Numbered from the stretch's first letter, positions 40,410 to 60,505 are shown. The stretch is 64,000 nucleotides of DNA from Longimicrobiales bacterium (GCA_963664435.2 CAXXKM010000001.1:864001-928000), one strand, 5' to 3'. Program-made: numbers and translations. Notes: a model not told the origin generated them from the letters alone.

Positions 40410-43400
40410 CTACCGCAACTTGATTCTTCCGCGGACGCGCACCGAATGTTGCGCCCCACTGAGCCCGCTCTCGCGCCGCGTGCCCTCGAGGCGCAGTCCG
40501 ACGCCCGAGCCCAGATCGTAGCGCACGCCGCTCGAGAAGGCGCGCACGCCGCTCTGGCCGAGGTGGAAGCCGCTGTAGGGCGTCCCCTTCAGGCCGACGA
40601 TGCCGTAGGCCACCTCGCCGTCCACGTTGGGACCCATGCCCGGGCCATGGCCGCCCATCGCGTCGGACACCCCGCGCTCCCACAGCTGGTTCACCCCGCT
40701 CATGTGGTCGCCGTACGAAGGCGCCACCCGGATCGAGAGTCCCTGGTCCCGAGCCGCCGGATCGAACATCAGCGTGCCGCCCAGGCCCCATTCCTCGTAG
40801 CCGTCGTGCCCCGAGATGACGAACCGTCCGCGGCCCTCCGCGGTCAGCCCCAGACTGGAGTTCGTGTAGCGGAGCCCACCGCCGACTTCCGCGCTCGCGC
40901 CGTTCACACCGTCGCCGTTGTCGTAGCGCATCCCGCCTTCGAGCAGGAACGCCATCTCGTGCCCGGTGTCGGAGCGGAAGCCCTGTGCCAACTCGAGAGC
41001 CAGCTTGCCGCGCTGCATATCGAGCGTCACCGCCTCGATCCGCTCGGAGCCGTCGACCTTGACTCGGCCGTACCAGCCCTCGGCCTTGACGCGGATGCCG
41101 CTCAGGCCGCTCGAGAACAACTGGTAGCCGGCACCCCCCGCTCCCGTCAGCATGCTGGCGGGGCTGGTGCGGAGCCCTTCCCGTACGTCGTCCACTTCGA
41201 TGTCGCCCCGGCCGAGCCCGGCCGAACCCCAAACCGAGGTGCCGCGCGCGCCGGAGAACCAGGCCAGGTAGGGATGCAGGCTGGTCATGGTGGCGCCGTA
41301 CGTGCCCTTCACCGCGCTGGCGCCGGTCCTGTCGGTGAAGTCGAAGCTGCCTGAGGAGTACGAGCCCGCGACGCCCGCCAGAATGTCCGGCCCCACGCGC
41401 ACGTCCACGCCGACGTGGCCGCTCACCATGTTGCCCTTCCAGTCGACGCCGCTCGCGCCGGGTTCGCCGAGGTGGTGGTACTCGCCCGCGCCCCAGCTCG
41501 CCAACCGGGTGCCCGTGGCGGACTGCTGCGGCGCATCCGTGGCGCCGAAGGGCATCGTAAAGGAGGTGCCGCCGAAGAGCGCGGCCAGACCGGCCTGGTC
41601 GCGCTGGCCGAGGCCGAGTCCGCCCGCGCCCGGCGCGGACAGGCTCGCGGCCATCGACGAGAGCCCGTGCGTCTCCACGCGCCGCTCCATGCCCATCCCG
41701 CTGGCCACAACGTCGACGCGGCTTGCGATCGCCGAAACCGTGCTCGACGTCATCGCTGCCGCCACGTGCGGCAGGACGCGGGTGTTCAGCCGTCCCGTGC
41801 GCTGCACGGGATCGTCGGTCGCGGCCGAAGCGCTCGCCGACGCCGCGCCGGTGCCGGCCCGGTTGATGGCCGACACCCGGTAGTGGCGCACGCTCCCCGG
41901 CAGCAGGCCGGTGTGCGAGAAAATGCTGCCCCTGGAATCGGTGTTGGTCACCAGATCCGTCCACGCGGCGGCGTTCTCCGAGACCTCGATGCGATAGCCC
42001 GTGATGGGGGCGCCGCCATTGTAGGCGGGCGCGACCCAGGCGAGGTCGATCTGCGTGGGCGTGACCGCGGTGGCGACCAGCCCCGTGGGCGCGTCGGGCA
42101 CGGTCGCGTCGGTGGTGGAGCCCGCAACCCGCGACGCATCGCCCGCGCCGATCCGGTTGATCGCCGAAACGCGGTAGTGGCGCGTCGAGGCCGGCGCGAG
42201 CCCGCTGTGCGTATGGACGGTGGCCGTGGTGCGCGTGTTGGCCACCAGATCCTCCCAACTCCTGCCCCCGTCTGCCGACACCTCGATGCGGTAGCCAGTG
42301 ATGCGCGCGCCCCCGTCGTCGGAGGGCGCCTGCCAGGAAAGGTTGATCTGGGAGGTCCCGGCCGCCTCGGCGCTGAGACGCCGCGGCACCCCCGGCAGGG
42401 TCGCGTCGGTGGTCGCACGCGCCGTATTCGAGTAAGGCCCCGGGCCCGCGAGGTTTCTCGCCGCGACCCGGTAGTGCCGCGTGGTCGCGGGCCGCAGGGT
42501 CACGTCGGAGAACGTCGTCGTCGTCGAGTTCGTGTTGCGGCGGATGATGTTCCAGGTCGCGCCCTCGTCGTCGGAAGCCTCGATACGGTAGCCGATGATC
42601 GAAACACCGCCCGTATAGCGGGGCGCGTTCCACGAGAGGTCGATGCGCGAGGTGCCCACCGCCCGCGCCGTCAGCCCGGTCGGGGCTCCGGCAGTATCGA
42701 CGTGCGTAACAGCCCACACCGGGGGCTCCGAGGTGCGCGGCGACCACTCTCCCTCGCCTTCGCGGTTGATGGCCCTGACCTGGTACTGGTACCGGGTCAC
42801 CGGCTGGAGTCCGGTGTGCCTGAACGTGGTCGTCGTCGTCCCGGTGTTTTGCTCGGCGATGGTCCAGTCGTCGTCGGGCGGCCCGAGCACCCGGATGCCG
42901 TAGCCGGTGATGCGCGCCCCTCCGTCGGCTTCCGGCGCATCCCAGGCGAGGAGGATGCCGCTCGGCCCGGTCGCGCGCGCACGCACGTTCTGCGGCCGCC
43001 CGGGAGGCGCTGCATCGGTGGTGCCTTCGGCCACGTTGGAGGGGGGTCCTGCCCTCGCCGGGCCGTTGATCGCGGACACGCGATAGAACCAGGTGGCGGC
43101 GGGACCAAGATTGCTGTCGGTGTGGATGGTGGCCGTGCTGCCGGTGCTGGCCACGTGGATAACCCAGCCGCCGACTCCGTTGGCGGACCTCTCGATGCGG
43201 TAGCCGGTAATCGGGCTGCCGCCGTCGTCTGCCGGGACCGACCAGGTAAGGAGAAGCTGGTCGGTTCTCGTCGCGCCCGGAACCACCCTGAGTCCTGTGG
43301 GCGCGCTCGGAGCGGAGGTTTCGGTGGTCTCCCGGGCGGTACTCGACCACGCGCCCAGGCCCGCCGCGCTCCTCGCCGCGACGCGGTAGTTGCGGGTGGT

Positions 43401-44717
43401 GTTGGGCCTGAGGCCACCGTGAAAGTAGGTCGTGGTCACGGCGTTGGTGTCGGCCAGGTGCCGCCAGTCGCCGGTTTCGGTGCGCGATTCGATGCGGTAG
43501 CCGGTGATCCGCCCCGAGCCGCTGGAGGAGGGGGCGCGCCAACTCAACCCGATGGCCGAGTCCCCGCGGGCCTGCGCCGTAAACGACCGGGGCGCGTCCG
43601 GCAGGACAGCCTCCGTGGTGGCGAAGGCGACGTTCGAGGGATCTCCCGTCCCGTTGAAATTGATCGCCGACACCCTGTAGTGGCGCGTGACGCCCCCGGT
43701 GAGGCGCGTGTGGCGGTAGACGGTGTCGGGATGCCGGCGCTCCAGAGGGTCCCAGGAATCACCGCCGTCCGCCGACACCTCGATCAGGTATCCGGTAATC
43801 TCGCGCCCGCGATTCGAACTCGGCTCATCCCACTCAAGCTCGATCGCGTCAGGGCCGTCGGCCACCGCAGCGAGGTTGCGCGGCTCTCCGGGAACGCCGG
43901 TGCGCGCCTCCCCGGTGACGTTTCTGACCTGCCTGTCGAAACCGAACGCGAGATTGCCGACCAGGTCCCGAAGCGCGTTGGTGCCGCGGTCGTCGTAGAA
44001 CACCCGAACCGCGTCGACCGTGTCGACGGGGCTGGCCAGAAGCAGGAACACATCGCGGGTGGCCACTTCAACCCCGGACACGGTCTTGACGTTGAACGCG
44101 TTGCCCCTGAGGAAGGATACCTGGAAGTCGCTGGCCGAGGGGACGAAACCTTCATCGAGGTCTTCGTCGAAGGCGATGACGACTTCGTCGCCGTTGACCT
44201 TCGCGTCGGAGACTTCGGGGCCCTTCGTGTCCACGGGAATGTCGAGGGAATTCGACGCAAGATTCCCATCCCCCGAGGCGCTGTCCTGCGCTACGTTCGC
44301 AGGGATGTGGACGAACACGCGACCACTATAGGCCTCCGGCATCCTCAGCGTGACGGAAAATCTTCTGCCGGAGTCGCTGCCCGGTGGAACGGCCTCCGCG
44401 CATCCCGTATTCGGATACGGGCAGGTGATGTTGAGGGCGTCGGCCGTGAAGCCTTTCACGGGCCGTGAGAAAAGGATGGTGATCTGCGCACTGTCCTGTC
44501 TGGGCGGGCTGATCCAGCTCCATGAAATCGAGGTCCTGGGGGGGACGGCCACGTCGCTCGCCGCCGCCGGCGGTTCCGCGGCCGATCGGACCACCTCGCG
44601 CGACCCGCCCGGCGTTGGCTCCTCAGCCCGCGCGCCCGCGGAAGGAAGCAGGAAGGCGCAGACCACTGCGGCGGCCCGGAGGGAACGGGCAGGAAGGCCA
44701 GGCTGGTTCGGAATCAT
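40410..44717 (-). CDS. Fibronectin type III repeat autotransporter-like adhesin
   Basis: Ig-like/SwmB-like N-terminal domains, seven Fn3 repeats (P..P..L.A...W..P...GG..ITGY.IE...YRV.A.N..G), C-terminal barrel. Confidence 0.88.
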   Translation of the reverse strand: MIPNQPGLPARSLRAAAVVCAFLLPSAGARAEEPTPGGSREVVRSAAEPPAAASDVAVPPRTSISWSWISPPRQDSAQITILFSRPVKGFTADALNITCPYPNTGCAEAVPPGSDSGRRFSVTLRMPEAYSGRVFVHIPANVAQDSASGDGNLASNSLDIPVDTKGPEVSDAKVNGDEVVIAFDEDLDEGFVPSASDFQVSFLRGNAFNVKTVSGVEVATRDVFLLLASPVDTVDAVRVFYDDRGTNALRDLVGNLAFGFDRQVRNVTGEARTGVPGEPRNLAAVADGPDAIELEWDEPSSNRGREITGYLIEVSADGGDSWDPLERRHPDTVYRHTRLTGGVTRHYRVSAINFNGTGDPSNVAFATTEAVLPDAPRSFTAQARGDSAIGLSWRAPSSSGSGRITGYRIESRTETGDWRHLADTNAVTTTYFHGGLRPNTTRNYRVAARSAAGLGAWSSTARETTETSAPSAPTGLRVVPGATRTDQLLLTWSVPADDGGSPITGYRIERSANGVGGWVIHVASTGSTATIHTDSNLGPAATWFYRVSAINGPARAGPPSNVAEGTTDAAPPGRPQNVRARATGPSGILLAWDAPEADGGARITGYGIRVLGPPDDDWTIAEQNTGTTTTTFRHTGLQPVTRYQYQVRAINREGEGEWSPRTSEPPVWAVTHVDTAGAPTGLTARAVGTSRIDLSWNAPRYTGGVSIIGYRIEASDDEGATWNIIRRNTNSTTTTFSDVTLRPATTRHYRVAARNLAGPGPYSNTARATTDATLPGVPRRLSAEAAGTSQINLSWQAPSDDGGARITGYRIEVSADGGRSWEDLVANTRTTATVHTHSGLAPASTRHYRVSAINRIGAGDASRVAGSTTDATVPDAPTGLVATAVTPTQIDLAWVAPAYNGGAPITGYRIEVSENAAAWTDLVTNTDSRGSIFSHTGLLPGSVRHYRVSAINRAGTGAASASASAATDDPVQRTGRLNTRVLPHVAAAMTSSTVSAIASRVDVVASGMGMERRVETHGLSSMAASLSAPGAGGLGLGQRDQAGLAALFGGTSFTMPFGATDAPQQSATGTRLASWGAGEYHHLGEPGASGVDWKGNMVSGHVGVDVRVGPDILAGVAGSYSSGSFDFTDRTGASAVKGTYGATMTSLHPYLAWFSGARGTSVWGSAGLGRGDIEVDDVREGLRTSPASMLTGAGGAGYQLFSSGLSGIRVKAEGWYGRVKVDGSERIEAVTLDMQRGKLALELAQGFRSDTGHEMAFLLEGGMRYDNGDGVNGASAEVGGGLRYTNSSLGLTAEGRGRFVISGHDGYEEWGLGGTLMFDPAARDQGLSIRVAPSYGDHMSGVNQLWERGVSDAMGGHGPGMGPNVDGEVAYGIVGLKGTPYSGFHLGQSGVRAFSSGVRYDLGSGVGLRLEGTRRESGLSGAQHSVRVRGRIKLR

Positions 44718-44746
44718 CGTGTCGTCTCCGCGTTGGTAAACGAGCG

Positions 44747-44832
44747 TCACCCCCCGCCCGGAATCCCGAACGGGGGGTGAGCCGTCCTGCGACCATCGGC
44801 CTGGCTGGTGGCGAGTCAGCCAGGCCGATGGT
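44747..44832 (-). terminator. Tandem hairpins between the lipoprotein and Fn3 genes
   Basis: 16-bp stem 44792-44807/44817-44832 and 10-bp stem 44747-44756/44771-44780. Confidence 0.65.
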
Positions 44833-44844
44833 GTTGAAGGGTTG

Positions 44845-47800
44845 TTAGCTCGATGGCTTGGCATCGACGGATACCACGGTACCCTGGCGCTCCTCGGTCC
44901 AGGTGTCGGTGCTGCCGTCCTCGCCCTCGTCAACACCCTCCTGCCGCGCGTCGACGCGTACCTTGATGGCCTTGTTGAGGTCGGCTTCAGTGATCGGAAC
45001 CGGTACCCCACCGAGCGTGCTCCAGGTTGCGGTGAAGCCGTCAGCGACCGGGAGGGTCCACGCCCTGGTTTCGCTGCCGAGAGTGGCAGGTGTTCCACCA
45101 GCGGCGACGAGCCATAAGGTGTTGCCTGCGGACGCGGCGTCGACCTCTACCAGAATCCGGAACTGCGAGTTGCCATTCGTCACAGCGTTCCAGCTGACCT
45201 CGATGTCGTCGTCGTCCCGTACGGCGGCCACACCGCTGGCCGACGGATCGATTTCGTCAACCGTGACCGCAGCCGAGGTGTCGGCGTACGGGACAGCCGG
45301 GGTCGAAGGCGTGATCTCTTCAGCGTTGGCAATGACCCGAACCATGAACTCGCCATCGCTCGGATTCGGGATCGTGAAGCTGCCCGGCACGTCCTCGAGT
45401 GGAGTACCAGCCTGCACCTGGGTTGGCGAGGTGACATCCGTCCAGGTATCACCATCATCCACGGAGGTCTGGATCGTGTACGTGGCGTCGTTATACCCAT
45501 CGGGCGTGTGCTCGGCGTTGGCCGTGTACATGACCGAGATGGTGGTAGCCCAGGCCCTCGTGGACTCATCGACATCGTCGGTGGCGTCGTCGTCGTCAAC
45601 GCGCATCCGCGCCGCTCTGACGTTCCGGGCGCCAGCAGTCATCGCCCTGATCGTACCGAAGTCATAAGCCTGACCCGGAGCGACGCTCACCCTCTGGTTG
45701 TCGTTCGGGTAGCCGAAGACGTGGTTCGCCGCCGACGCTTCGATGTCATAGGTGCCGAACGGTACGCTGAGCACGAAGGTGCCTCTGGCAGTGCTGGTGC
45801 TGGAGACATCGTCCCCGGCTGCGCCCGGAACCACGTTCGTGGCCGTGACCGTAACGCCACCCATTGCGGTGTTGTCCGGACCGCGCACCCTGCCCGAAAT
45901 CGTCGCGTGCAGGAAGCCGGTGAAGTTGATACCCGAGACCGCCGATCCGGCGTGGGCCGGCACGGACAGCTCCGCAGGCGCGAAGCTCATGCCGTCCTTC
46001 GACACGGTCACCGCAGCACTCTCGCCCAGGTCTTTGGCGGTGATGGTCGCGGTGTAGGTGCCGTCGGCGCCCGTCACGAGCTTGCCTGCGTTCGCACCGG
46101 TCGTGGCTGCGTTGGTCGGGGCCGCGCCGTCCACCATGATCTCGGCACCGGCGATCGGCGCGCCGCTGCCGGATGCGGTGACCGTACCGCTGATCGAGGC
46201 GGTCGCGCCTACGCCCGAAAGATCGACGTCTGCGTTGATACGGTCGTTCGCAGCGAATGGCACGATCTCCCGCGTCTTCCCGCTTCCTTCATGGGCGGTC
46301 TCAACGAAGACGCTGTTCGTGTGCGTCACGTTGCCAATCTTGCGGCTCGCCACGTTGGGCACGTACTCCGCGATGTAGCGGCCGTGCGCGTCGGTCATCG
46401 CCTCAACCCCGTTCACGTTCACGGTCACGTCGGGAACGGGGAATTCCTCCGCGTCCCTCACGTAGCCGTAGACGGTGGTCGTCGCCGGCGTGATGTCGAG
46501 TTCAACATCCCCTGCGAGCGGGCTGAAGGCGCTGCCGACCATGGCGGTGGCGCCCTTCGGACCCATCCTCGCCCGCCAGCCGTCCGTCACGCTGGCTTCG
46601 TAGACGCCGGCAGCGATGTTGTTGAAGGCGAACTGGTGGGTCTCGTCGAGCACTTCATTGCCCTTGGAGGTCTCACCCGGCCCCCGGACCGGCTTCTCCG
46701 TGGTGGTGGCGGACTCCTCGTCACCCGCGAGATTCTTGCCCTCGACGGGGCTCAGGCTGACCGAAATGCCGGGTACGAACGTGGGTCCACCATCATCCTC
46801 CGGACCCATCTTGAAGCCGTCATCGTTGGCGCTCTCGCTGCTCCTGAGGACCTGGTTCTTCCAGATCAGGCCCGTCACCGAGTGCGTGCTCACGTAGGCG
46901 AACGACGAGCAATCGCCGTGGTCCTGCGGCTTGGTGGCCTGTAGCGGGCATAGCGAAACCGTGTGGCTGTAGCCGCCCTGCGCTCCGAAGTGGCCGCCAG
47001 TGATTCCGTTGGTTTCCGTGCCGGCGTAGGCGGCCAGCTCATCGGCATGCCCGCCCTCATCGAGGAGCATGATGCTCTGGTCGCTGTTGTCGGCCTTCGA
47101 CGCCTGGGCAATCACGTTCATGTCGGCCGGCACGTTGTTGAAGACCCATGCACCGCCGTCACCATTGTTGCGCGGCTCGCTGATGCTGTCCGCAGCCGTG
47201 AACGGGCGCGAGCGCCCGCTGTCGTCGATATAGCGGACCTCGACGTCGACCTTGCGATCGGCACCCTTTCCGTCCATCTCGTCGCCGCCGATGATGTTTC
47301 CGGTGTAGCCTTCGACCTGGTCGAGCTCGTGGTGGACGTAGACCTTGAGCGTCTGGGTCGTGAACGCCGCCTCGAGCATGCCGGCGTCCTGCGTGCCGGC
47401 CAGCATGAGGCCGGTGTGCGTGTACTCGACCGGCTGAGCCGAGTAGTTCTCGCCCCCGTCCAGCGCGTTGTCCTGGTCGTCGGCGAGCGCGACGGTGAAG
47501 GTCGCCGGCAGGTCGTCGGCTCCGACGGTAGTCATGAACGCCGCGTTGCCCATGTCGTCCAGCATCTCCGGCGCGCCGTCGACCGCTTCGTCGCCGGACA
47601 TGACGCTGATCGCCCAGCCGGCGAGCGCCTCGCCGCCACCGTACTCGGTGGTGACAGTGGCGCCGCTGACGGATGCGTCGACGTTCAGGTTGACGATGTC
47701 GTTGGAGTTTCCGGCCGCGGTCGCAAACATCTGCGGATCCCAGGACACTGCGGTCCTGGCGTCCTCACCGTAATCGTAGCCTTCGGCCGATACGCCCGCT

Positions 47801-49503
47801 GTCACCATGTTCCCGTCGGTGCGTGCGCGCGCGACCTTGATCGTGACGGAGCCGTCGTCGTCGGTGGTGCCGCTGCCGACCATGCCGTCGCCCGTCCCGT
47901 AGAGCGTGACTGTGGCGCCGGGAACCGCGTCGCCCATGTCGTCGCCGTTCCTCAGCGAGACCGTGAAGTTGACCGTTGTGTGCGTGATGTCGAACGGAAT
48001 GGCCTGCGAAGCCGGCTCGCCGACACCGAGGTCGACGGAGTAGCCTTCGCCCGGTCCGCCGTACGCGAGGTCGGCGGCCGCGAGCGCCGCGGCGACATCG
48101 GCGTTGATGAGCACGACCAGCTGGTAGGGGCCGGCGCGCAGACCCGTGAAGGAGAACGCACCGGTCTCGTCCGTGGCGCCAAGCCGCTGCTCGTTGACGC
48201 CCGGGCCCACCAGCGCCACCGGAATGCCGGCGTGCGCCACCGAATGCTCGCCCTCGTCGTACATGTCGTTCTTGGTCGCCTCGTCGATGAACACCATGCC
48301 CGAGACGCTCGCGGTGCGCGCGTGCGCGCCCTCGAAATTCACGATCGCCGACTCGTCGTCGCCCAGCGTCACGTCCGTGCTCATCGACTCGAACACGTAG
48401 GCGTCGCTCTCGACCGCGATCGAGACCGTGTAGTCGCCGGCCGCCAGGCCCGCGAAGGCGTACTGGCCGCCCGCGTCGGTCATCGTCGTGCGGCTCTCGT
48501 CGCCGCCCGCCAGCGTCACCGCGATGTCGCCGAGTCCCATGCCCTCGACGCTCACTCCGCCCGCGATGCCGGAGGTGCGGAGCAGGACGCCGGTGAACGA
48601 CACCGTGCCGGTCTCGTCGAGATCCACGCTCACGTCCTGCGACGTGGCCGCGAACTCGTAGTCGCGCGGGTCGAAGTCCGCGATCTCGACCCTGTAGTCG
48701 CCGGGGCGAAGTTCCTCGAACCGGAACATGCCATCGCCGTCGGTCATCATCGTGTAGCTCTCGTCGGCCGGACCGCCGCTCAGGGTGACCGTAATGCCGG
48801 CAAGCCCTTCGCCTTCGATGATCACCTGCCCCTCGACCGCGGAGGTGCGGATGAAGTGGCCCGTGAAGTCGGCCTGGCCGACATCGCCCACGTCGACCTG
48901 GATCTCGAGGCTCACCGTCTCGAAGGACACGTCCTCGGGGAAGTCGCTGATGGTGACCGTGTAGGTGCCCGCGCGGAGCCCGGTGAAGGCGAAGCCGCCG
49001 CTCATGTCGGTCTCCATGGTCTCGCCCATGGCGTGCTCGCCGCCGAGCGTGACCGTCACGCCAGCCAGCGTCTCGGGCTGGCCGTCGCCGCCGCTCATCA
49101 TGGCGTCGGCCGCAACCACGTTGCCGACCACCGCGGAGGAGCGGATGTACTCGCCGGCGAAGTTGAGTTGGACGTTCTGACCATCGGTCGCGATGGTCGC
49201 GGACTGCGTCACCTGGGCGAACGTCGCATCCTCGGGGAAGCCGCTGATGGTGACCGTGTAGGTCCCGGCTTCCACGCCCGAGAAGGCGAAGCTGCCACCC
49301 GACCCGGTCGTCGTGGTCGCACCCGACGACAGGGTGGCGGCGATGCCGCTGGCGGCCGTGCCTTCAATCGTCACCGTCCCGGAGATGGTTCCCACGGGAG
49401 TGGGCGGCGGGGGCGGCTCCACGGGCGGCGGAGTGCCCTCGTCGCAGGCGGTGAAGGTCAGGGCCATCAGCGTTGCTGCGGCGAAGAGTTTGAGTCGGTT
49501 CAT
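44845..49503 (-). CDS. Large acidic surface lipoprotein with carboxypeptidase-regulatory/SdrD-B-like beta-sandwich repeats
   Basis: Lipobox FTAC, poly-Pro linker, repeated G.V...G.TVTL.G...T...G.F.F.GL.AG.YTV units; AGGAGG RBS. Confidence 0.85.
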   Translation of the reverse strand: MNRLKLFAAATLMALTFTACDEGTPPPVEPPPPPTPVGTISGTVTIEGTAASGIAATLSSGATTTTGSGGSFAFSGVEAGTYTVTISGFPEDATFAQVTQSATIATDGQNVQLNFAGEYIRSSAVVGNVVAADAMMSGGDGQPETLAGVTVTLGGEHAMGETMETDMSGGFAFTGLRAGTYTVTISDFPEDVSFETVSLEIQVDVGDVGQADFTGHFIRTSAVEGQVIIEGEGLAGITVTLSGGPADESYTMMTDGDGMFRFEELRPGDYRVEIADFDPRDYEFAATSQDVSVDLDETGTVSFTGVLLRTSGIAGGVSVEGMGLGDIAVTLAGGDESRTTMTDAGGQYAFAGLAAGDYTVSIAVESDAYVFESMSTDVTLGDDESAIVNFEGAHARTASVSGMVFIDEATKNDMYDEGEHSVAHAGIPVALVGPGVNEQRLGATDETGAFSFTGLRAGPYQLVVLINADVAAALAAADLAYGGPGEGYSVDLGVGEPASQAIPFDITHTTVNFTVSLRNGDDMGDAVPGATVTLYGTGDGMVGSGTTDDDGSVTIKVARARTDGNMVTAGVSAEGYDYGEDARTAVSWDPQMFATAAGNSNDIVNLNVDASVSGATVTTEYGGGEALAGWAISVMSGDEAVDGAPEMLDDMGNAAFMTTVGADDLPATFTVALADDQDNALDGGENYSAQPVEYTHTGLMLAGTQDAGMLEAAFTTQTLKVYVHHELDQVEGYTGNIIGGDEMDGKGADRKVDVEVRYIDDSGRSRPFTAADSISEPRNNGDGGAWVFNNVPADMNVIAQASKADNSDQSIMLLDEGGHADELAAYAGTETNGITGGHFGAQGGYSHTVSLCPLQATKPQDHGDCSSFAYVSTHSVTGLIWKNQVLRSSESANDDGFKMGPEDDGGPTFVPGISVSLSPVEGKNLAGDEESATTTEKPVRGPGETSKGNEVLDETHQFAFNNIAAGVYEASVTDGWRARMGPKGATAMVGSAFSPLAGDVELDITPATTTVYGYVRDAEEFPVPDVTVNVNGVEAMTDAHGRYIAEYVPNVASRKIGNVTHTNSVFVETAHEGSGKTREIVPFAANDRINADVDLSGVGATASISGTVTASGSGAPIAGAEIMVDGAAPTNAATTGANAGKLVTGADGTYTATITAKDLGESAAVTVSKDGMSFAPAELSVPAHAGSAVSGINFTGFLHATISGRVRGPDNTAMGGVTVTATNVVPGAAGDDVSSTSTARGTFVLSVPFGTYDIEASAANHVFGYPNDNQRVSVAPGQAYDFGTIRAMTAGARNVRAARMRVDDDDATDDVDESTRAWATTISVMYTANAEHTPDGYNDATYTIQTSVDDGDTWTDVTSPTQVQAGTPLEDVPGSFTIPNPSDGEFMVRVIANAEEITPSTPAVPYADTSAAVTVDEIDPSASGVAAVRDDDDIEVSWNAVTNGNSQFRILVEVDAASAGNTLWLVAAGGTPATLGSETRAWTLPVADGFTATWSTLGGVPVPITEADLNKAIKVRVDARQEGVDEGEDGSTDTWTEERQGTVVSVDAKPSS

Positions 49504-49573
49504 GGAACCTCCTGAGTGGTGGAAAGGAAAACCGGCCTGGAGGGGCTGGAGAGAGTCGCGTGCCTTTGGATAG

Positions 49574-49589
49574 GCAAAGGCGGTGCCAA
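49574..49589 (-). promoter_or_regulatory. Sigma-54 (RpoN) -24/-12 promoter of the large lipoprotein gene
   Basis: TTGGCACCGCCTTTGC: TGGCAC-N5-TTGC with exact GG-N10-GC spacing, about 70 nt upstream of the ATG. Confidence 0.75.
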
Positions 49590-49962
49590 TTTCAGAACCT
49601 TCATAATTGGCAACCGGTTACGCACTATCGCCCCGCTCTGTGGCATCCGGCGGACCCCACGGATTCTCGGATTATCGGCGACGGCCACTGTTTTCTGAAT
49701 GCGACTAAAACGATAAGATTGTTGGCGATATCGCCCGTTTATCAGAAATGTGTCTCAAATATCACTCCGATCGCCCCTGTCTCGTCGTATACGACGTTAT
49801 CGATATCCGCAATGCCAGAAGCGACTGTAGGACGATCCGTCACGGCCCTAAATTGACAAGATCGCTGATCGTACATACTGGTATATACGAAGACTCACCA
49901 TGGGGGCAAAGGAATGGGGCGCCACGGTTGGCAGCGCGCCTCTTCACGGCGGGATCGCAGGG

Positions 49963-50826
49963 ATGGAGTCGAAACAACTGGTCTGCATGCTGTATTGCAG
50001 CGACGGCGAACTGAGGGACCGACTGGAGCGCGTGCTCGCCGGCGTCGCAGTTCAGCGAGTGCGTTCGAGAGAGGCACTCCTGGCGCCGCCCGCGATCGTT
50101 TGCGCGACGGTATACGGAACCACCACCTGCTCCGATGACGAAGTCGAGTGGTTGCGGTCGGCCTTCAGGCCTCTGAGCCCGCCATGCGTCGTGGTGGCTG
50201 ACCTCTCCGTAGACTGCCTGCGACGACTGGACCCACTCCGCTCCTGCAGGCTGAAGGTCGTGTGGACCGCCGAGGCCGAGGACCGCCTCGGTGAAGTCCT
50301 CGGGGAGTTCGGCAGGGTGAGTTGGGGTCCGATGTGGCGTCTCGGCCTGGGGCTGGTGTCGGAGCCTTCCCTGAAGCCTTTCGTAAAGGAGACGATCCGC
50401 CGGGCGTGCGGCCTGCGCAACGATCCCGCCGGCACTCCGTTCGTCCCCGAGAAGTCCGTCGGAAAGCTGGCGCGCGAGGTCGGCGTCGCCACGTCGACGC
50501 TTCGGCTTTGCTGGAGGGAGGAAGTTCCGCTCCGGTGCAGCCTCAAGGAATTCCTGAGCTGGGCGGTCACCCTCTGGGGCACGCGCGCGCGTGCACTTGA
50601 GGAATGGACTCCCCTCGCCAAACGGCTGGGACTCCAGCGCCGCTCGCTCGAGAGAAACTTCCTTCGGACGGCCGGATGTACCCTCGCCGAGGCGGCCGAG
50701 GACTCGGAGCGGGTGGTCGGGCGATTCAATGAGTGGGTCGATTCCGTGTGGGAGCCCCACTCCGGCGACGGGTCCGGGGCGTATGATCGGGTTCCGACGC
50801 AGGCGCCCCGCGAGGAGATGCCTTGA
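49963..50826 (+). CDS. Regulator with degenerate receiver-like N-terminus and AraC-type double HTH
   Basis: CSDGELRDRLERVL and PCVVVA resemble a REC fold without the acidic pocket; SVGKLAREVGVATSTL and LAKRLGL...FLRTAGCT are two HTH-like segments. Confidence 0.65.
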   Translation: MESKQLVCMLYCSDGELRDRLERVLAGVAVQRVRSREALLAPPAIVCATVYGTTTCSDDEVEWLRSAFRPLSPPCVVVADLSVDCLRRLDPLRSCRLKVVWTAEAEDRLGEVLGEFGRVSWGPMWRLGLGLVSEPSLKPFVKETIRRACGLRNDPAGTPFVPEKSVGKLAREVGVATSTLRLCWREEVPLRCSLKEFLSWAVTLWGTRARALEEWTPLAKRLGLQRRSLERNFLRTAGCTLAEAAEDSERVVGRFNEWVDSVWEPHSGDGSGAYDRVPTQAPREEMP

Positions 50827-51869
50827 CGGTGGCCGGATCGACCGCCCGGCGTTACGTCGGGTGGCGGTGCAGGCTCTACCCGAGCCCCGCGCAGGATGAA
50901 GCGCTGCTCCGGTGCAGGAACGGCCTGCGCGAACTCGCCAACGCCCTGCTCGCCACCTCCCAGCTCAGGTACGGGGAGACCGGACGGCGCCTGTCCCTGA
51001 TCGAGATGCGCGCCTTCGCGCGGGACTGGAAGCGGCAGCCGAAGCACCGGGAATTCCCCGCCAGCGCCAGCTACCGCGTCGCCGCCGATCTCGACCGGAC
51101 CTTCCGCACCTGGTTCAGCAGGCCGGGAAAACGCGGGCGCAGAGGATTTCCCCGGATCAAGAGCATCGGACGGGAGCCCGGCATCTACTTCAGCAACCAG
51201 GGGATCCGCTTCGACGGCAGCCGGGTGTGGCTGCCCAGGTTCGGGTCCGTGCGCTGGAAGGGCGGAAAGCTGCCCTCGGGGAGGCTGCCGGGTCCGTCCG
51301 GACGCAAGACCCTCGGTCTGCTCTCGGGGCGGGCCTGGCTCGATGCGGGAAACCGGTGGATGCTGTCGTGCCTGTTCGAGTGCGCGCCGCTCACCCCCGT
51401 CGAACCGAGAACGGAGAAGGCGGCAGTCCGTCAGAACGGCCGCGAAATCAGTGTGTCGGTGGACGGGGAGGCCCTCCACGTGATCCGCGAGAGCAGGACG
51501 CTCAGGAACGCGAGGCGCCGCCTGGCAAGGCTCGAGCGGCGGCTGGAGCGATGCGAATTCGGGTCAGAAGGCCGAAAGCGCACCCTTGCCCTCATGCGCA
51601 ACCAGGCACGCAGGGTTCGGAACCACCAGGCGGATCTGCAGCACAAGGCCACGACCGGCGTCGTGCATGAGGCCCGCGAGATCGAAGTGGAAGGCGCGAG
51701 CAGCGAACTGCTGCGTCAGCTCGAATACAAGGCGGAGTGGCACCGCCGCCGACTGAAGGTACGGCGAGGCCCGCCGGAACCGGGGACTGGCAAGCCCCGA
51801 CGCGCGCGGAGACCGGGGAGCCGGTCGCAGAAACGCGAATCGCGGACGCGAAGGCCGAAAGCTCTGTAG
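50823..51869 (+). CDS. TnpB homologue with degenerate RuvC (TldR-like, predicted nuclease-dead)
   Basis: RLYPSPAQ, GFPRIKS, LPRFGSVR, RLARLERRL, DLQHKATT, RQLEYKAEW are TnpB hallmarks; no GIDLG, no CxxC zinc finger, no DxNAA. Confidence 0.85.
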   Translation: MTVAGSTARRYVGWRCRLYPSPAQDEALLRCRNGLRELANALLATSQLRYGETGRRLSLIEMRAFARDWKRQPKHREFPASASYRVAADLDRTFRTWFSRPGKRGRRGFPRIKSIGREPGIYFSNQGIRFDGSRVWLPRFGSVRWKGGKLPSGRLPGPSGRKTLGLLSGRAWLDAGNRWMLSCLFECAPLTPVEPRTEKAAVRQNGREISVSVDGEALHVIRESRTLRNARRRLARLERRLERCEFGSEGRKRTLALMRNQARRVRNHQADLQHKATTGVVHEAREIEVEGASSELLRQLEYKAEWHRRRLKVRRGPPEPGTGKPRRARRPGSRSQKRESRTRRPKAL

Positions 51870-51900
51870 CCGTCTGCGAAGGCCGGAACGAATCAGGGAG
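51781..51900 (+). ncRNA. Putative omega-RNA (guide RNA scaffold) overlapping the TnpB 3' end
   Basis: Stems CGGGG/CCCCG, GACCGG/CCGGTC and TCGCGGACG/CGTCTGCGA; ACGCGCGCGGAG...GAAACGCGAA resembles IS605-type 3' RNA as I recall it; boundaries approximate. Confidence 0.6.
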
Positions 51901-52312
51901 CAGGACCTCGCCAGGTACGGGACAGCAGGTGATATCTGATCCGTGAGCGATAATATCGGCAACTATGATGATATCATGGAGACAGAGAGAGTCGAGGCAA
52001 CACCGGCCCCCACGCAAGAGGTAGCCGATTGCACTGCGATCTATCAGTTATATTTCAAGGTAGTATGCTGATATTGGGATGATAACGCGGATGCATGCAC
52101 CCTGAAGCTCCATCCGCAGTCCCCAGGCCGCTTTGTACGCTCAATCCACACTTCCACCGCGAACCCTGCCGAGACTAGGGGAGGTGCCCTTGAATCCCGG
52201 TCGACAATTTATGACGTTTGGATGATAGTTCGGGTGCATTTGCGATGTTTTGGCGATCACTGGTTGTGCCCGAGGACGCGACGCCGGGCGAGGATCCGGG
52301 GAGGACGGGCCG

Positions 52313-54676
52313 GTGACTAAGCACCCGGACGCGTTGAGAATAGAGGCGCTGCAGGAGCGCGTCTCGAGGCTGTGCGGCGCAATCCTGCGCATCAACGCGA
52401 GCCTGGATCTTGAGACGGTCCTGCAGGAAGTCGTAGACAGCGCCCGGGCCCTGACCGGCGCCCGCTATGGCCTGATTGCGACCGTCGACGACGCGGGCGA
52501 ACCCGGGCCGTACCTCGTCTCCGGCCTGACGCCGGAGCAGCTGCGGCAGCTTCAGGAGTGGGAGGACGGGCTCCGGGTCTTCGAGCACTTCCGGGACCTT
52601 CCGGGTGCGGTGCGGATCGGAGACCTGTCGACCTGGCTCCGTTCGCTCGGTTTCTCGCCGGTCGCGCTTCCATCGAAGACGCTGCAGGGCACGCCGATCC
52701 GTCATCGGGGCATCTACGCCGGAAGTTTCTTTATCGGCGGAAAGGACGGGGAAGGCGAGTTCACCCGCGAGGACGAAGAGGTTCTCGTCCTGCTGGCGTC
52801 GCAGGCAGCGACGGCGATCGCCAATGCCCGCAACTTCCGGGACGAACAGCGGGCGCGGGCGAAGGTGGAGACCCTCGTCGACACGTCGCCGGTCGGCGTG
52901 GTGGTCCTGGACGCCAGAACCGGAAGTCTGGTGTCGATCAACCGGGAGGCGAAGCGGATCGTCCGAGGCCTGCGGATGCCGGACGGGTCAACGATGGAGC
53001 TTCTGGAATTGGTTACGTGCCGGCGCGGCGACGGGCGCGAGTTCGCCTTGAAGGAATACCCGCTGGCGCGCGAGCTGAGCAGCGCCGAGACGCTGCGTGC
53101 CGAGGAGATCGAACTTTCGGTCCCCGATGGACGCAGCGTTAAGACGCTGATAAACGTGACGCCGATCCATGAGCCCGACGGTCGCGTCGAGTCCGTTGTG
53201 GTCACCATGCAGGATATGGCGCCGTTTGAGGAGCTCGAGCGAATGCGGACCGAGTTCCTCGGGATCGTGAGTCACGAGTTGCGCGCGCCGCTTGCCGCCA
53301 TCAAGGGCTCGGCGGCCACAGTGCTCGCCGGCTCCGGGCGCGTCGCTCGTGCCGAGATGCTGCAGTTCTTCCGCATCATCGACGAGCACGCCGACAACAT
53401 GAGCGTTTTGATGGGCGACCTGCTCGATGCGGGACGCATCGCGACGGGCACATTGTCCATCTCGCCCGAGCCCTCGGATGTCGGGGCGCTGATCGACCAG
53501 GCGCGGACCACCTTCCTGAACGCCGGCGGCCGACACAGCGTGCGGGTCGACCTGCCTCCGGACCTGCCGAAGGTGATGGTCGACCGGCAGCGCATCGTAC
53601 AGGTCCTCAACAACCTCCTCTCCAACGCGGCGAGATACTCCCGGACGTCGTCGCCCATAGAGGTCAACGCGCGGCTCGATGGCGTCCATGTCTCGATCAC
53701 GGTATCCGACCATGGCAGAGGCATCGCGCCCGAGCGGCTGGCGCACTTGTTCGCCAAGCGGGCCGGCGCGGGCGAGGGCACGCGCGGTCTGGCGACGGGC
53801 CTGGGCCTCGCCATCTGCAAGGGACTGGTAGAGGCGCACGGGGGCCGCATCCGGGCTCGGAGCGAAGGAGAGGGTCGAGGGGCGCGATTCACGTTCACCG
53901 TCCCTACCGCCGAAGAGGTCGGCGGCGACATCGCGGCTTCGGATTCCTCCTCGCAGGAACGCTCCCGTCCAGGTCCGGACGCGACGCGCATCCTGGTGGT
54001 GGACGACGACCCGCGGACGCTGCTCTACATCCGCGATACGCTCACCACGGCGGGGTATACCGTACTCGAGACGGGCGAGCCTCCGGAACTGGCGCGGGTC
54101 ATTCGCGCGGAGAAGCCCCACCTGGTCCTGCTCGACCTGATGTTGCCCGGGACCGACGGCATCAAGCTGATGCAACAGGTTCCCGACCTGGCCGACATGC
54201 CGGTCATCTTCATCTCCGCCTACGGGCGGGACGAGACGATCGCAAAGGCCCTCGACGCCGGGGCCGCCGATTACATCGTCAAGCCGTTTTCGGCGACGGA
54301 GTTGACGGCGAGGATCCGGGCGGCGCTGCGCAGGCACGCCGAGCCCGCATCCTTCATGCTGAGTGGGCTGGCCATCGACTACGATCGCCGCCAGGTGACG
54401 CTCGGCGGCCAGCCGCTGGAGCTCACCGCCACCGAATACGAGCTGCTGCGGGTGCTCTCGGCCAACGCCGGGCGCGTGCTGACGTACCGCGCGCTGCTGC
54501 GCAAGGCCTGGGACACCCGCTACCGGAGCTCCGTCGACCCGAAGCTGGTGCATGCCGTTGTGAGGAGGCTCCGCCACAAACTGGGCGAGGACGGCGCTCG
54601 GCCGACCTACATTCTCAACGAGCGAAGGGTAGGCTACCGGATGCCCGCGCCGGACGACCGCGCGAGCGAGCCGTGA
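52313..54676 (+). CDS. Hybrid histidine kinase GAF-PAS-HisKA-HATPase-REC-OmpR winged helix; paralogue of 22125-24488
   Basis: VSHELRAP, NLLSNA, ILVVDDD, KPF, LTATEYELL; GTG start after GGAGG. Confidence 0.92.
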   Translation: MTKHPDALRIEALQERVSRLCGAILRINASLDLETVLQEVVDSARALTGARYGLIATVDDAGEPGPYLVSGLTPEQLRQLQEWEDGLRVFEHFRDLPGAVRIGDLSTWLRSLGFSPVALPSKTLQGTPIRHRGIYAGSFFIGGKDGEGEFTREDEEVLVLLASQAATAIANARNFRDEQRARAKVETLVDTSPVGVVVLDARTGSLVSINREAKRIVRGLRMPDGSTMELLELVTCRRGDGREFALKEYPLARELSSAETLRAEEIELSVPDGRSVKTLINVTPIHEPDGRVESVVVTMQDMAPFEELERMRTEFLGIVSHELRAPLAAIKGSAATVLAGSGRVARAEMLQFFRIIDEHADNMSVLMGDLLDAGRIATGTLSISPEPSDVGALIDQARTTFLNAGGRHSVRVDLPPDLPKVMVDRQRIVQVLNNLLSNAARYSRTSSPIEVNARLDGVHVSITVSDHGRGIAPERLAHLFAKRAGAGEGTRGLATGLGLAICKGLVEAHGGRIRARSEGEGRGARFTFTVPTAEEVGGDIAASDSSSQERSRPGPDATRILVVDDDPRTLLYIRDTLTTAGYTVLETGEPPELARVIRAEKPHLVLLDLMLPGTDGIKLMQQVPDLADMPVIFISAYGRDETIAKALDAGAADYIVKPFSATELTARIRAALRRHAEPASFMLSGLAIDYDRRQVTLGGQPLELTATEYELLRVLSANAGRVLTYRALLRKAWDTRYRSSVDPKLVHAVVRRLRHKLGEDGARPTYILNERRVGYRMPAPDDRASEP

Positions 54677-54749
54677 TCCGCCGGCACCGGCCATCTCCCC
54701 TCGCACAGTCCACCCGGCCCCGCCGTGTGCCGTGTGCCGCGAGCATCAT

Positions 54750-57632: not shown

Positions 57633-58963
57633 TGGAACCTGGCCTCCCAGTCGTCGAGGAGCGCGAAGTGGTCACCGTCGGCAACCGTGTAATAGACTCT
57701 CTGCATCCCCTGCCGGCGGGTGGGCTCGAAGGACACGGATTCGCCGATTCCCAGCGGGAAGTTGCGCACGCTGAAGATCGTCTCTTCCAGCCGGGACCTG
57801 TCTGGACGTCCTCCCAGGCGCCGGAGGATTTCGGTCATCAGCTTCGCGTTGAGAAACCCCTCCAGGCTGACGAAGCCGCGGGCGAGGGGTTGATACGATT
57901 CACCCTCGGTGATTCTCTCCAGATCGTCCGGCAGCCGAGGGTCGTACTGGAACATCAGCCGATGGTACTCGTTCACGGACGGGAACGTGGCGTCGTCGAA
58001 CGCGGGCACGACCTGCGAATTCACCAGGAACCGGGTGTAGGAATCCGGGTCGGAGCGTCTCTCGCGCAGGACTCGCTGCAGGTTCTCGCTCCCCACGAAC
58101 GACAGGTTGGCCACCGGCACGTGCAGCCCCAGATCGACGGCGTCGCGGGCGAAGGCCGCGCACGCGGCGTAGGCGCCGATACAGATCACGGCGTCGGGCG
58201 AGCCGGCCTTCAGGATCTCCACCTGGCGCCTCATGCTCGCGCCGAACGGCGTGCCTCGCCGGTAGGTGGCCTCCCCCGCGATGGTCTCTCCGTGCCGGGC
58301 CAACGCCTCTCGCACCCCCGCCCAGCCGCTGCGTCCATACGCGTCGATCTGGTAGAAGACCGCCACGCGCCGCCGTCCGATGCGGACGAAGTTGTCGACC
58401 AGCCCGGCGGTCTCCTGCCGATAGGAGGCCCGCAGGTTGAAGGCGAACTCGCCGTAGGGAGGTTCGCGCTGCGGCTCCGCTCCCGTGAAGGGGAAGAAGA
58501 GGTAGAACTGCTGGTCGCGAAATCGCTTCAGCAGAGGCAACACCCGGGTGACGGTAGGGGTGCCCACGTATCCGAAGAGCAGGAACACACCGTCGTCCTG
58601 CATGAGCCGGAGGGTGTTCGCGACGCAGGTTTCGGGCTGATAGCCGTCGTCGTAGAGCTTGAGGACGATCCGGCGGCCGTTGACTCCCCCGTTGTCGTTG
58701 ACGTGGCTGAAGTAGGCCATCGCGCCGCGATACAGCTCCGTGCCCAGGCCGCGAGAGGGGCCCGAGAACGCGGCCGACACGCCGAGTACGATGTCATCGG
58801 CCTGCGTACCCGCGGTGCGGCGGCTCCGGTGCGTCGACGGGGAGGAAGCGGCGAGCGCCTTCGCCCAGGGAGCGGCGGCCAGCGCGGCGAGCCCGGATCG
58901 CAGGAGCGATCGGCGGGTCAGCAGGTTCGCGTTGCACACCCTCCTGTCTCGCCCTCCAATCAT
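57626..58963 (-). CDS. Periplasmic binding protein (LivJ/Peripla_BP_6-like) with Tat signal
   Basis: TRRSLL, GGVNGRRI, DDGYQP, GYVGTPT, NLRASY; start uncertain. Confidence 0.85.
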   Translation of the reverse strand: MIGGRDRRVCNANLLTRRSLLRSGLAALAAAPWAKALAASSPSTHRSRRTAGTQADDIVLGVSAAFSGPSRGLGTELYRGAMAYFSHVNDNGGVNGRRIVLKLYDDGYQPETCVANTLRLMQDDGVFLLFGYVGTPTVTRVLPLLKRFRDQQFYLFFPFTGAEPQREPPYGEFAFNLRASYRQETAGLVDNFVRIGRRRVAVFYQIDAYGRSGWAGVREALARHGETIAGEATYRRGTPFGASMRRQVEILKAGSPDAVICIGAYAACAAFARDAVDLGLHVPVANLSFVGSENLQRVLRERRSDPDSYTRFLVNSQVVPAFDDATFPSVNEYHRLMFQYDPRLPDDLERITEGESYQPLARGFVSLEGFLNAKLMTEILRRLGGRPDRSRLEETIFSVRNFPLGIGESVSFEPTRRQGMQRVYYTVADGDHFALLDDWEARFQW

Positions 58964-59368
58964 GCGAGATGCCGCCCCCCTGGTCGGTTGCAAAACGAGC
59001 CTGACGGGGTCGCCTCCGAACCCATCCCCGCTGGCCTGCCTCCAGCGTACTCGCTGGTTTTGAGTTCCGCAACCGACGGACGAGCACAGTGTCCACACCC
59101 TCTATTGTCTGACAGAATCGCCTCTTATGGCGATAAATGCCCGATTTTCCACGAGTTATCCACAGCGGAACGGCGCGCGGGCGGGCGTTCGGGGTTCCCA
59201 GGCAGGGATCTGAAACAGGGGCTCGCGCGCCGCGACGGCAGCCGGCAGCCGGGGCGGCGCCCTGCCTGATTCAGCGCATCAGCGAGTCACGCGCAGCGCG
59301 GTAAGGCTGAGGAGGAAGCCGGCAACCGGGGTCCACGGGATGATCGCGCTCCACATCCGATCCCGCCC

Positions 59369-60460: not shown

Positions 60461-60505
60461 TCTCCTCCCAGGAGTGTCATGAAGTCCTGGAATCCGCGGA
60501 TGCAG

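Follow-up and report, generated by a model that had tools for sequence, protein, structure and literature searches.

A 64,000-nucleotide stretch of a Longimicrobiales genome (GCA_963664435.2, CAXXKM010000001.1:864001-928000; hereafter the window) carries, at positions 49,963 to 51,869, two overlapping genes: the first encodes an AraC-like regulator and the second a TnpB homolog that has lost its nuclease centre and resembles the TldR proteins, the dead derivatives of TnpB. Divergent from this pair lies the gene for a giant lipoprotein. A first-pass annotation had read the two genes as an independent domestication of dead TnpB joined to an AraC-type factor; while its observation of the gene pair holds, it overlooked the core of the system, namely the omega-RNA, the guide and the divergent lipoprotein gene.

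The dead TnpB and its relatives

The TnpB-like frame is open over all of its 348 amino acids (aa), as first described, and its TTG start and the TGA stop of the regulator overlap in a common TTGA. The GAGGAG ribosome-binding site that had been proposed is present, at 50812, but is not kept in homologs; several homologs lack a start at codon 1, and a GTG at codon 3 is kept in most. The NF040570 profile scores the protein at 75 bits, below its cut-off of 100, PF01385 matches it with an E-value of 3e-5, and hidden Markov model scores favour the IS200 model. Its structure model, with a predicted local distance difference test score (pLDDT) of 84, has the TnpB fold, the top match being ISDra2 TnpB (E 3e-20), and the folded core spans approximately aa 8-315. 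Aligning the protein to intact relatives of the P0068 group confirmed a number of departures from a nuclease that the first-pass annotation had noticed: firstly, Arg203 occupies the position of the RuvC-I aspartate; secondly, 19 residues are deleted behind the RuvC-II glutamate (E290), which is itself retained; thirdly, both the zinc finger and RuvC-III are missing. [quoted passage not shown] With RuvC-I changed from Asp to Arg and RuvC-III gone, only the glutamate of the triad remains in the present protein. The last ~35-40 aa of the frame are read-through of the omega-RNA rather than a protein domain: pLDDT is below 50 at residues 318-348, and this tail is frameshifted in 3 of 22 copies of the same subtype (subtype A, defined below).

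Substitution patterns indicate that the gene is under purifying selection, with a median pairwise dN/dS (ratio of nonsynonymous to synonymous rates) of 0.27 over 22 copies (231 pairs, which are not independent; range 0.14-0.44; pairwise Nei-Gojobori, codons 3-308); this argues against neutral evolution, for which the first-pass annotation had suggested a dN/dS check. The copies are mosaic, in that identities in the N-terminal and C-terminal thirds correlate with r 0.03, compared with r 0.9 for the two halves of the regulator. The reported absence of tnpA or a resolvase nearby extends further: Y1 TnpA gave no match in the organism's own genome or in 24 other genomes of the family, IS607 recombinase gave none in its own genome, and matches to the latter in 6 of 41 genomes all fell short of the cut-off. 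As in TldRs, then, the gene lacks a transposase and is kept by selection, and with neither a transposase gene nor an intact nuclease it does not form an active IS200/IS605 or IS607 element. A mobile insertion sequence (IS) carrying the regulator as cargo was likewise rejected, there being no transposase and no fixed left end.

Relatives of the dead TnpB were found in genomes labelled Candidatus Palauibacter, Longimicrobiales or Gemmatimonadetes, a group that abounds in sponges and in marine sediment (PMC10469786). The gene is present in 15 of 18 other genomes of the genus (16 of 19 with the organism's own) and in 0 of 22 sampled genomes of other genera, a tally that takes in the unpublished G025 as a non-matching row, on which no positive statement depends. 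Widening the search to the phylum turned up two more dead copies, both in a sister genus, and a single copy in another family; the last, a subtype-C locus (G277:C25:2635-3780), has the score and frame length of G007:C5:34708-35853 and may reflect transfer or bin contamination. Viral contigs held distant intact TnpB only. The copies comprise subtype A (73-88% identical to the window's protein) and the more basal subtypes B (about 53%) and C (about 40%); subtype C is of full length with a zinc finger, with its RuvC-I Asp changed to Ala and RuvC-III changed in two of three. Further dead relatives (P0065, P0066, P0070, P0072) are 33-45% identical to the window's protein, two of them with a different RuvC insertion.

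The predicted omega-RNA, its guide and the lipoprotein genes

A 140-nucleotide (nt) block across the end of the open reading frame is almost invariant among 24 copies, and we predict that it forms the omega-RNA scaffold. Two lines of evidence place its 3' end. The first comes from the intact outgroup P0068. Its nearest annotated relatives (only 37-39% identical to it) were inspected at four plasmid loci, two of which have an IS607 transposase or a recombinase-family gene in front of them. RNAs of the IS607 type end in GG, and their first loop pairs with the 3' end (10.1101/2023.11.20.567912); the RNA-end layout of these relatives is that of the dead TnpB family. The second is the pseudoknot itself: the first loop pairs at 4/4 positions with the four bases before the terminal GG in 44 of 45 distinct RNAs, as GGCC:GGCC in subtypes A and B and as GGCA:TGCC in subtype C and orphan RNAs, a compensatory change. 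This pattern demanded AA after the GG, and RNAs with other guide starts escape the count. We dropped an IS200/605-style end at TCAG (51896) because the IS607-type relatives and the pseudoknot place the end at 51886; the "guide" read from TCAG differs in every copy and has no consistent target. A guide aimed at the sigma54 -24 box, with a G-rich likeness of only 4-8 nt, was an artefact of the wrong boundary. Rfam gave no match for the omega-RNA, its minimum free energy was not better than that of shuffles (z -0.06 in single-strand folding), an RNAalifold covariation term of -0.64 left the structure without support, and a search for an active ancestor from which to read the transposon-adjacent motif (TAM) found no locus.

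Directly after the GG, guide positions 1-10 are identical in 31 of 31 type-A RNAs, position 11 in 25 and position 12 in 28, falling to 2 of 31 at position 13; guide conservation thus ends where the target match ends. A conserved omega-like scaffold with a conserved guide is a feature of TldRs, and the RNA predicted here has both. Because the guides of all three subtypes start with AA, the boundary is uncertain by 2 nt: taking AA as scaffold gives flanks of TTGAA, ATGAA and TTCAA and guides of 9-10 nt, near those of the oppF clade. It is possible that the internal loop at 51862-51866 pairs with the distal guide in a fold-back and so masks that part of the guide.

Some RNAs occur outside the usual arrangement. 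Tandem orphan omega-RNAs with differing guides lie upstream of a lipoprotein promoter (G000:C3:1146924-1146538; L048:3552-5420; L452:2426-2620), and G233 has a short duplication of scaffold end and guide; together these resemble an array-like expansion of guides. Tandem 5'-truncated 3' ends of dead TnpB with the whole RNA occur in L049, L054 and L056, where the members of a pair are alike for about 11-12 nt beyond TCA and differ from there on.

The type-A 12-mer occurs four times in the organism's own genome: in two RNAs, and in the leaders of two lipoprotein paralogs on contig C2 that have no dead TnpB nearby and sit in one 14-kb, 99.5% inverted duplication. The chance of such a 12/12 match is 3.4e-4 for random intergenic 12-mers, none of 20000 shuffles achieved it, and a scan of 52 start offsets reached 12 at 51886-51887 only. 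Across the genus, the pattern of TG plus 10 guide bases gave 15 matches in 14 of 19 genomes (reversed control, 0), all of them 22-24 nt before a lipoprotein ATG and in orthologous core leaders, so that they demonstrate conservation rather than independent matching. The flank is GTGAAGGTTG in 14 of these, and 14 match the guide at 12/12; the remaining guide match, at 11/12, is in G010, where one of two RNAs carries the change that matches its site (position 12). G006, G008 and G015 have neither dead TnpB nor site, and in G008 and G006, which are complete, the marker symporter is not followed by a lipoprotein. In G017 and G018, which encode the dead TnpB and lack the site, the core locus was not found or is cut by a contig end.

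The distribution of sites among lipoprotein genes is selective. The type-A site is present in 13 of 50 distinct lipoprotein 5' regions and in 0 of 24 that are linked to type A (one start was not located); the leader of the window's own cassette lipoprotein is without it. In 19 of the 50, the window's gene among them, the B guide matches at 11/11 immediately behind the ATG, and the C guide matches at up to 12/12 in early coding regions; with the six lipoprotein genes that are linked to B or C copies, none of the guides tested reaches a match of 8 nt. With shuffles at the same pre-set boundary, 11/11 was reached by 6 of 20000 for B and 12/12 by 1 of 20000 for C. Guides also vary with their sites: lipoprotein starts read AAC AGA, not AAC CGA, in the G009 core and in sister genus g20 (4 of 5 genomes, all at lipoprotein starts), and guide position 4 is A in the G009 orphan and G233 RNAs, where starts read AAC AGA. 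In G236, the RNA and the site in the genome disagree at position 3. As in TldRs, the guide matches the 5' region of a gene tied to the locus, next to a conserved motif that we read, from the targets, as the TAM.

Other matches were seen. The start of a TonB-dependent receptor gene in the window (29421-29433, minus strand) matches a C3 orphan guide over 11 nt directly after the ATG, which was not repeated in five other genomes. A conserved intergenic match of 10-11 nt to the type-A guide, with a GGAAG-type flank, occurs at G000:C3:1640636 (minus strand) and in L316, L317, L357, L360 and L361; it is also found in G006, which has no dead TnpB, and may be a second target or chance. Separately, codon 3 is changed from CGA to TGA in 8 lipoprotein genes of 7 genomes (two in G000:C2, and one each in G002:C34, G003:C374, G004:C2, G007:C29, G010:C1 and G011:C25), spread over several leader subgroups that also hold intact members. 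The change falls at subtype-B target position 4, on the strand that an R-loop would displace, and could represent escape, R-loop deamination or a mutation hot spot.

Table 1. Features of the locus and of the guide-matched sites (window positions unless a contig is given; G000 is the organism's own genome)
Feature	Position	Strand	Basis
Fn3-repeat autotransporter-like gene, after the lipoprotein gene, travels with the cassette	40410..44342	-	start by own gene caller
Cassette giant lipoprotein, 1552 aa, CarboxypepD_reg-like Ig repeats, lipobox-like signal	44845..49503	-	N-terminus conserved, body variable
Subtype-C guide site, 12/12, early coding region, antisense	49363..49377	+	match; guide seen in G005 and G007, not in own genome
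Subtype-B guide site, 11/11, just after the ATG of the window lipoprotein	49490..49505	-	match; two subtype-B copies on contig C3
Sigma54-type -24/-12 motif of cassette lipoprotein gene	49574..49588	-	consensus match
Sigma70-like promoter of regulator-TnpB operon (TTGACA, 17 nt, weak -10)	49853..49881	+	consensus match only; kept among copies
Pseudo-receiver and MarA/AraC-fold regulator, 287 aa, translationally coupled to dead TnpB	49963..50826	+	fold matches; dN/dS 0.44
Nuclease-dead TnpB (TldR-like, subtype A), 348 aa	50823..51869	+	open frame, TTG start
Omega-RNA scaffold over frame end (nexus hairpin 51762-51776; pseudoknot 3' strand 51881-51884; terminal GG 51885-51886)	51758..51886	+	conservation, covariation, predicted
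Internal loop complementary to guide positions 8-12	51862..51866	+	inferred from sequence; covaries with guide in subtype B
Guide AACGAATCAGGG	51887..51898	+	conservation, target match; start maybe 2 nt later if AA is scaffold
Type-A target, core lipoprotein leader, outside the window	G000:C2:12967-12978	-	12/12 guide match
Type-A target, second core lipoprotein leader, outside the window	G000:C2:54994-55005	+	12/12 guide match

By analogy with flagellin for the fliC- and csrA-associated TldRs, the giant lipoprotein appears to be the constant partner of the system. Identity among its paralogs is 86-97% over the first 300 columns of the alignment and drops to 11-55% in the closing blocks, as expected for interchangeable surface variants. 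The lipoprotein promoter is divergent from the regulator in 13 of 16 aligned A copies, and mapped copies lie mostly in islands with a giant lipoprotein, an fn3 autotransporter-like gene or both, several of which adjoin conjugation, integrase and ArdC genes. Neither fliC, csrA nor oppF is linked to the locus, the neighbours being lipoprotein, fn3 autotransporter, AraC-like, LuxR, kinase and conjugation genes. A perfect sigma54-type motif occurs six times in the genome, five of them before lipoprotein paralogs. Sigma54 requires AAA+ activators, and the genome has six strong genes for them; because of these motifs and activator genes, we consider it unlikely that the AraC-type protein activates the lipoprotein genes directly. 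Contigs from 4 runs of 2 studies gave no credible joint at the cassette.

Further along the window (52313-54676, plus strand), a hybrid GAF-PAS-kinase-REC-Trans_reg_C protein is encoded, which recurs with a LuxR-type gene downstream of type-A cassettes. Large, near-identical inverted duplications surround lipoprotein islands (G000:C2:1-33000 with 44000-62000; C3:1130000-1146000 with 1778000-1794000; G010:C3:1244000-1274000), and two C2 paralogs have a common start and different bodies, as would fit a shuffling or invertible locus, or a mixed-strain assembly. Dead TnpB is absent from the complete genome G006, yet the lipoprotein N-terminus finds 23 matches there, roughly 19 of which are strong; this suggests another way to handle paralogs.

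A proposed silencing mechanism and its alternatives

From these sequence comparisons we consider it probable that the locus represents a new TldR clade, in which a dead TnpB with a fixed guide silences an unlinked core giant-lipoprotein gene. The independent domestication first proposed is supported by the gene pair, purifying selection, a retained RNA and a specific predicted DNA target. The operon would yield dead TnpB, and its transcript would be processed at the 3' end into an omega-RNA whose fixed guide measures 10-12 nt. The complex would bind DNA at the flank GGTTG followed by AACGAATCAGGG, or at TTGAA followed by 10 nt; this span precedes the start codon of the core lipoprotein gene by 18-35 nt and lies some 50-70 nt downstream of that gene's predicted sigma54 start. 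Expression of the gene would be lowered by blocking RNA polymerase, as TldR precedent suggests. The cell would then shift its coat to the cassette surface variant, because the cassette lipoprotein, divergent from another leader, is without the site. Subtypes B and C would act likewise on other paralogs, B at the start codon of core and type-A genes, and the result would be a web of cross-silencing among cassettes, some of them adjoining conjugative-element genes. The AraC-like protein would be a co-transcribed island regulator that ties the supply of TldR to its own control and is dispensable for targeting.

Several observations weigh against this interpretation. Published TldRs repressed from a 5' untranslated region only with the TAM-proximal end facing the polymerase, and the type-A and type-C sites face it with the TAM-distal end, the less effective orientation (B has the effective one). 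The 14 genomes share one orthologous leader and are not 14 independent tests. Pairing of the distal guide with the internal loop could be another reason for its conservation. The TAM is drawn from the targets, and the flanks of A and B differ from that of C unless the boundary shifts by 2 nt; five other 11-nt guide matches in the 5 genomes checked have no TG flank, and guides of orphan RNAs had no consistent target in other genomes. Lastly, both core targets in the organism's own genome have TGA at codon 3, with frames otherwise open over about 1760 aa, so that the target may already be dead there.

The foremost alternative assigns a larger role to the regulator, whose identification as a pseudo-receiver joined to an AraC-type helix-turn-helix (HTH) was correct. 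Its residues 1-120 have a receiver fold (Z about 11) in which strand 3 ends in G-T, with no acidic residue in place of the phospho-acceptor Asp of response regulators, and residues 137-259 have the two-HTH MarA/AraC fold (1bl0, Z 10.3, root-mean-square deviation 2.6 A over 110 aligned residues). By sequence it gave a weak HTH_18 match only (E 0.06, below the Pfam cut-off); its Atlas neighbours are partly HTH_18 (22% and 92% of members), a PDB sequence search gave no match under E 0.1, and a Foldseek search gave none under 0.001. Its dN/dS is 0.44 (15 copies, pairwise Nei-Gojobori). If this protein were a physical partner in subtype A, the ribonucleoprotein (RNP) would bring it to the core leader, strengthening a roadblock that is in the weak orientation there or gating it by a signal, with guide and target unchanged. 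The genes overlap at stop and start, and a search for the conserved pair, as the first-pass annotation had advised, found 25 of 26 near-full-length type-A copies directly behind an AraC-like homolog (one homolog being broken). Modelling the two proteins as a complex, also its suggestion, gave weak support, at 0.44 (runs 0.44, 0.00 and 0.47) against 0.01 for the best control, with runs agreeing in at least 70% of contacts and partner pLDDT of at least 81. Of 157 solved pairs 116 attain the mark, as do 2 of 215 mismatched pairs; those that attain it with a score of no more than 0.60 number only 18 among the solved pairs but include both of the mismatched ones. These counts apply only roughly here because we used our own alignments.

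Against such a partnership, no AraC-like gene precedes any of 10 B or C copies, which would work without it, C in the same orientation as A. The receiver half is lost in 6 of 26 type-A copies, where the match to the regulator does not begin until residue 105-123 (in the four copies aligned, the promoter joins it at about codon 104), and one type-A copy without an AraC-like gene (L093) keeps the guide. Identities of regulator and dead TnpB correlate with R2 0.10 (105 pairs, Mantel p 0.036; r 0.0 for the RuvC third). At dCas12f loci the HTH non-partner has R2 0.19 and sigmaE 0.78, and this poorly co-evolving HTH neighbour proved to be an autoregulator rather than a partner (PMC13472631); the value here resembles that of the non-partner, although gene conversion among TnpB copies could erase a real signal and softens the argument. 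The regulator family also occurs alone, as homologs up to 62% identical. On all these grounds the AraC link as the defining feature of the system is not supported: it is coupled in one subtype only. We regard a bound AraC-like partner as unlikely, though it is the likeliest of the alternatives. Similarly doubtful is a composite view, in which mobile lipoprotein cassettes use three or more fixed guides to silence one another, subtype A has recruited a bound AraC-family partner, so that the complex delivers or is gated by an AraC-type factor, and subtype-B R-loops leave the recurrent C-to-T nonsense change in their target.

Less probable again is an action of the type-A RNP on RNA, the guide pairing with the core mRNA before the ribosome site and thereby blocking translation or causing decay. 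In its favour, both the A guide and the C guide run antisense to the message, a Shine-Dalgarno-like sequence follows about 10 nt past the end of the A site, and a DNA roadblock is weak in the type-A orientation. However, the B guide is identical to the message and can therefore act on DNA only, A and B have a common, TAM-like TG (or TGAA) flank, and the target-recognition half of the protein is folded and conserved.

We give very little weight to RNA-guided activation in the manner of dCas12f-sigmaE, with the complex and the AraC-like factor switching a promoter on. MarA/AraC-fold proteins are frequently activators, and the complex prediction lends weak support, but every site is downstream of the sigma54 motif, within a leader or at the start of a coding region, the genes linked to cassettes are without matches to their own guide, as silencing of rivals would predict, and the AAA+ activators that sigma54 needs are already encoded in the genome. 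It is just as improbable that the locus is a decaying IS remnant in amplified surface-protein islands, its guide an old flank or RNA structure: although many copies are broken, IS-interrupted or 5'-truncated, some adjoin conjugative-element genes and their presence is patchy, dN/dS is 0.27 after the loss of catalysis, the guide is invariant in differing flanks, three guides converge on one gene family, and self-avoidance and covariation are evident.

Relation to known systems and significance

The features of TldRs that can be judged from sequence are all found here, and the proposed silencing system would work most like those associated with fliC and csrA, while by linkage it belongs to none of the three named clades. 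With the prophage fliC_P-associated TldR (10.1101/2023.11.30.569447, 10.1101/2025.07.22.666180) it shares a dead TnpB with RuvC and zinc-finger loss, a fixed guide, a place beside a surface-protein variant and, by prediction, an unlinked host paralog as target with its own variant spared. It differs in that the target is a lipoprotein of 1500-1800 aa with a sigma54-type promoter, the site is in the leader instead of the promoter, the host is a member of the Gemmatimonadota, the cargo is that of an island or conjugative element rather than a prophage, and the ancestor looks IS607-type. The csrA-associated TldR of Firmicutes (10.1101/2025.07.22.666180) likewise has several loci per genome, a predicted web of cross-repression among paralogs, sites within the transcribed region, broken loci whose RNA may be supplied in trans, and a co-encoded protein regulator; there the regulator is the RNA-binding CsrA, whereas here it is a DNA-binding pseudo-receiver/AraC protein, with a single omega-RNA overlapping the reading frame and no invertase seen. 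The oppF-associated TldR of Enterococcus (10.64898/2026.09.22.753285) is similar in its short guide (about 9-11 nt), C-terminal truncation, and target downstream of the start site in a paralog-rich lipoprotein-type gene, but it targets the linked oppA rather than an unlinked paralog, and its TAM, TTTAA, is different.

The dCas12f-sigmaE system with its hth neighbour (PMC13472631) also places a dead RNA-guided protein and a transcription regulator in one operon, and its weakly co-evolving HTH protein is the closer parallel for the AraC-like gene. Here, by contrast, the best fold matches are to TnpB rather than Cas12f, the RNA is an omega-RNA, the neighbour has receiver and MarA folds instead of being an ECF sigma factor, the sites are downstream of the promoter, and repression is predicted. 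Among IS607-family TnpBs (CboIStron; the Acidiphilium pACRY02 element), the relatives of the intact outgroup lie behind serine recombinase genes (clearly so in 2 of 4 inspected) and the RNA ends in a pseudoknot strand and GG, as here; the present locus has no recombinase and no nuclease, its guide is fixed rather than set by the insertion flank, and its target flank ends in TG, not GG. Our literature search found no nuclease-dead TnpB with AraC and no TldR-lipoprotein system, most subscription papers and the 506-TldR supplementary list being outside that search, and that list may thus already contain the dead TnpB sequences with no target assigned. Neither AraC nor Gemmatimonad occurs in the main text of the two TldR papers that were searched for both words.

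If our interpretation is right, the locus would add one more independent lineage to the TldRs, one whose target is named and can be tested. RNA-guided swapping of isoforms would then reach beyond flagellin and peptide-binding proteins to surface lipoproteins of giant size, in a genus of Gemmatimonadota that is uncultured and associated with sponges. The family retains the steps of a domestication, from an intact relative through a point-dead protein of full length and a zinc-finger-deleted form to one coupled to a regulator, and it may set guide against guide in a web within single genomes. An effector of roughly 310 aa with a 130-nt RNA is a candidate for uses like CRISPR interference (CRISPRi), and the system offers a way to test directly if RNA can guide an AraC-type factor. 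For the organisms themselves, it would offer a first handle on the role of their multi-copy lipoproteins, which is likely to be coat variation against phage or host.

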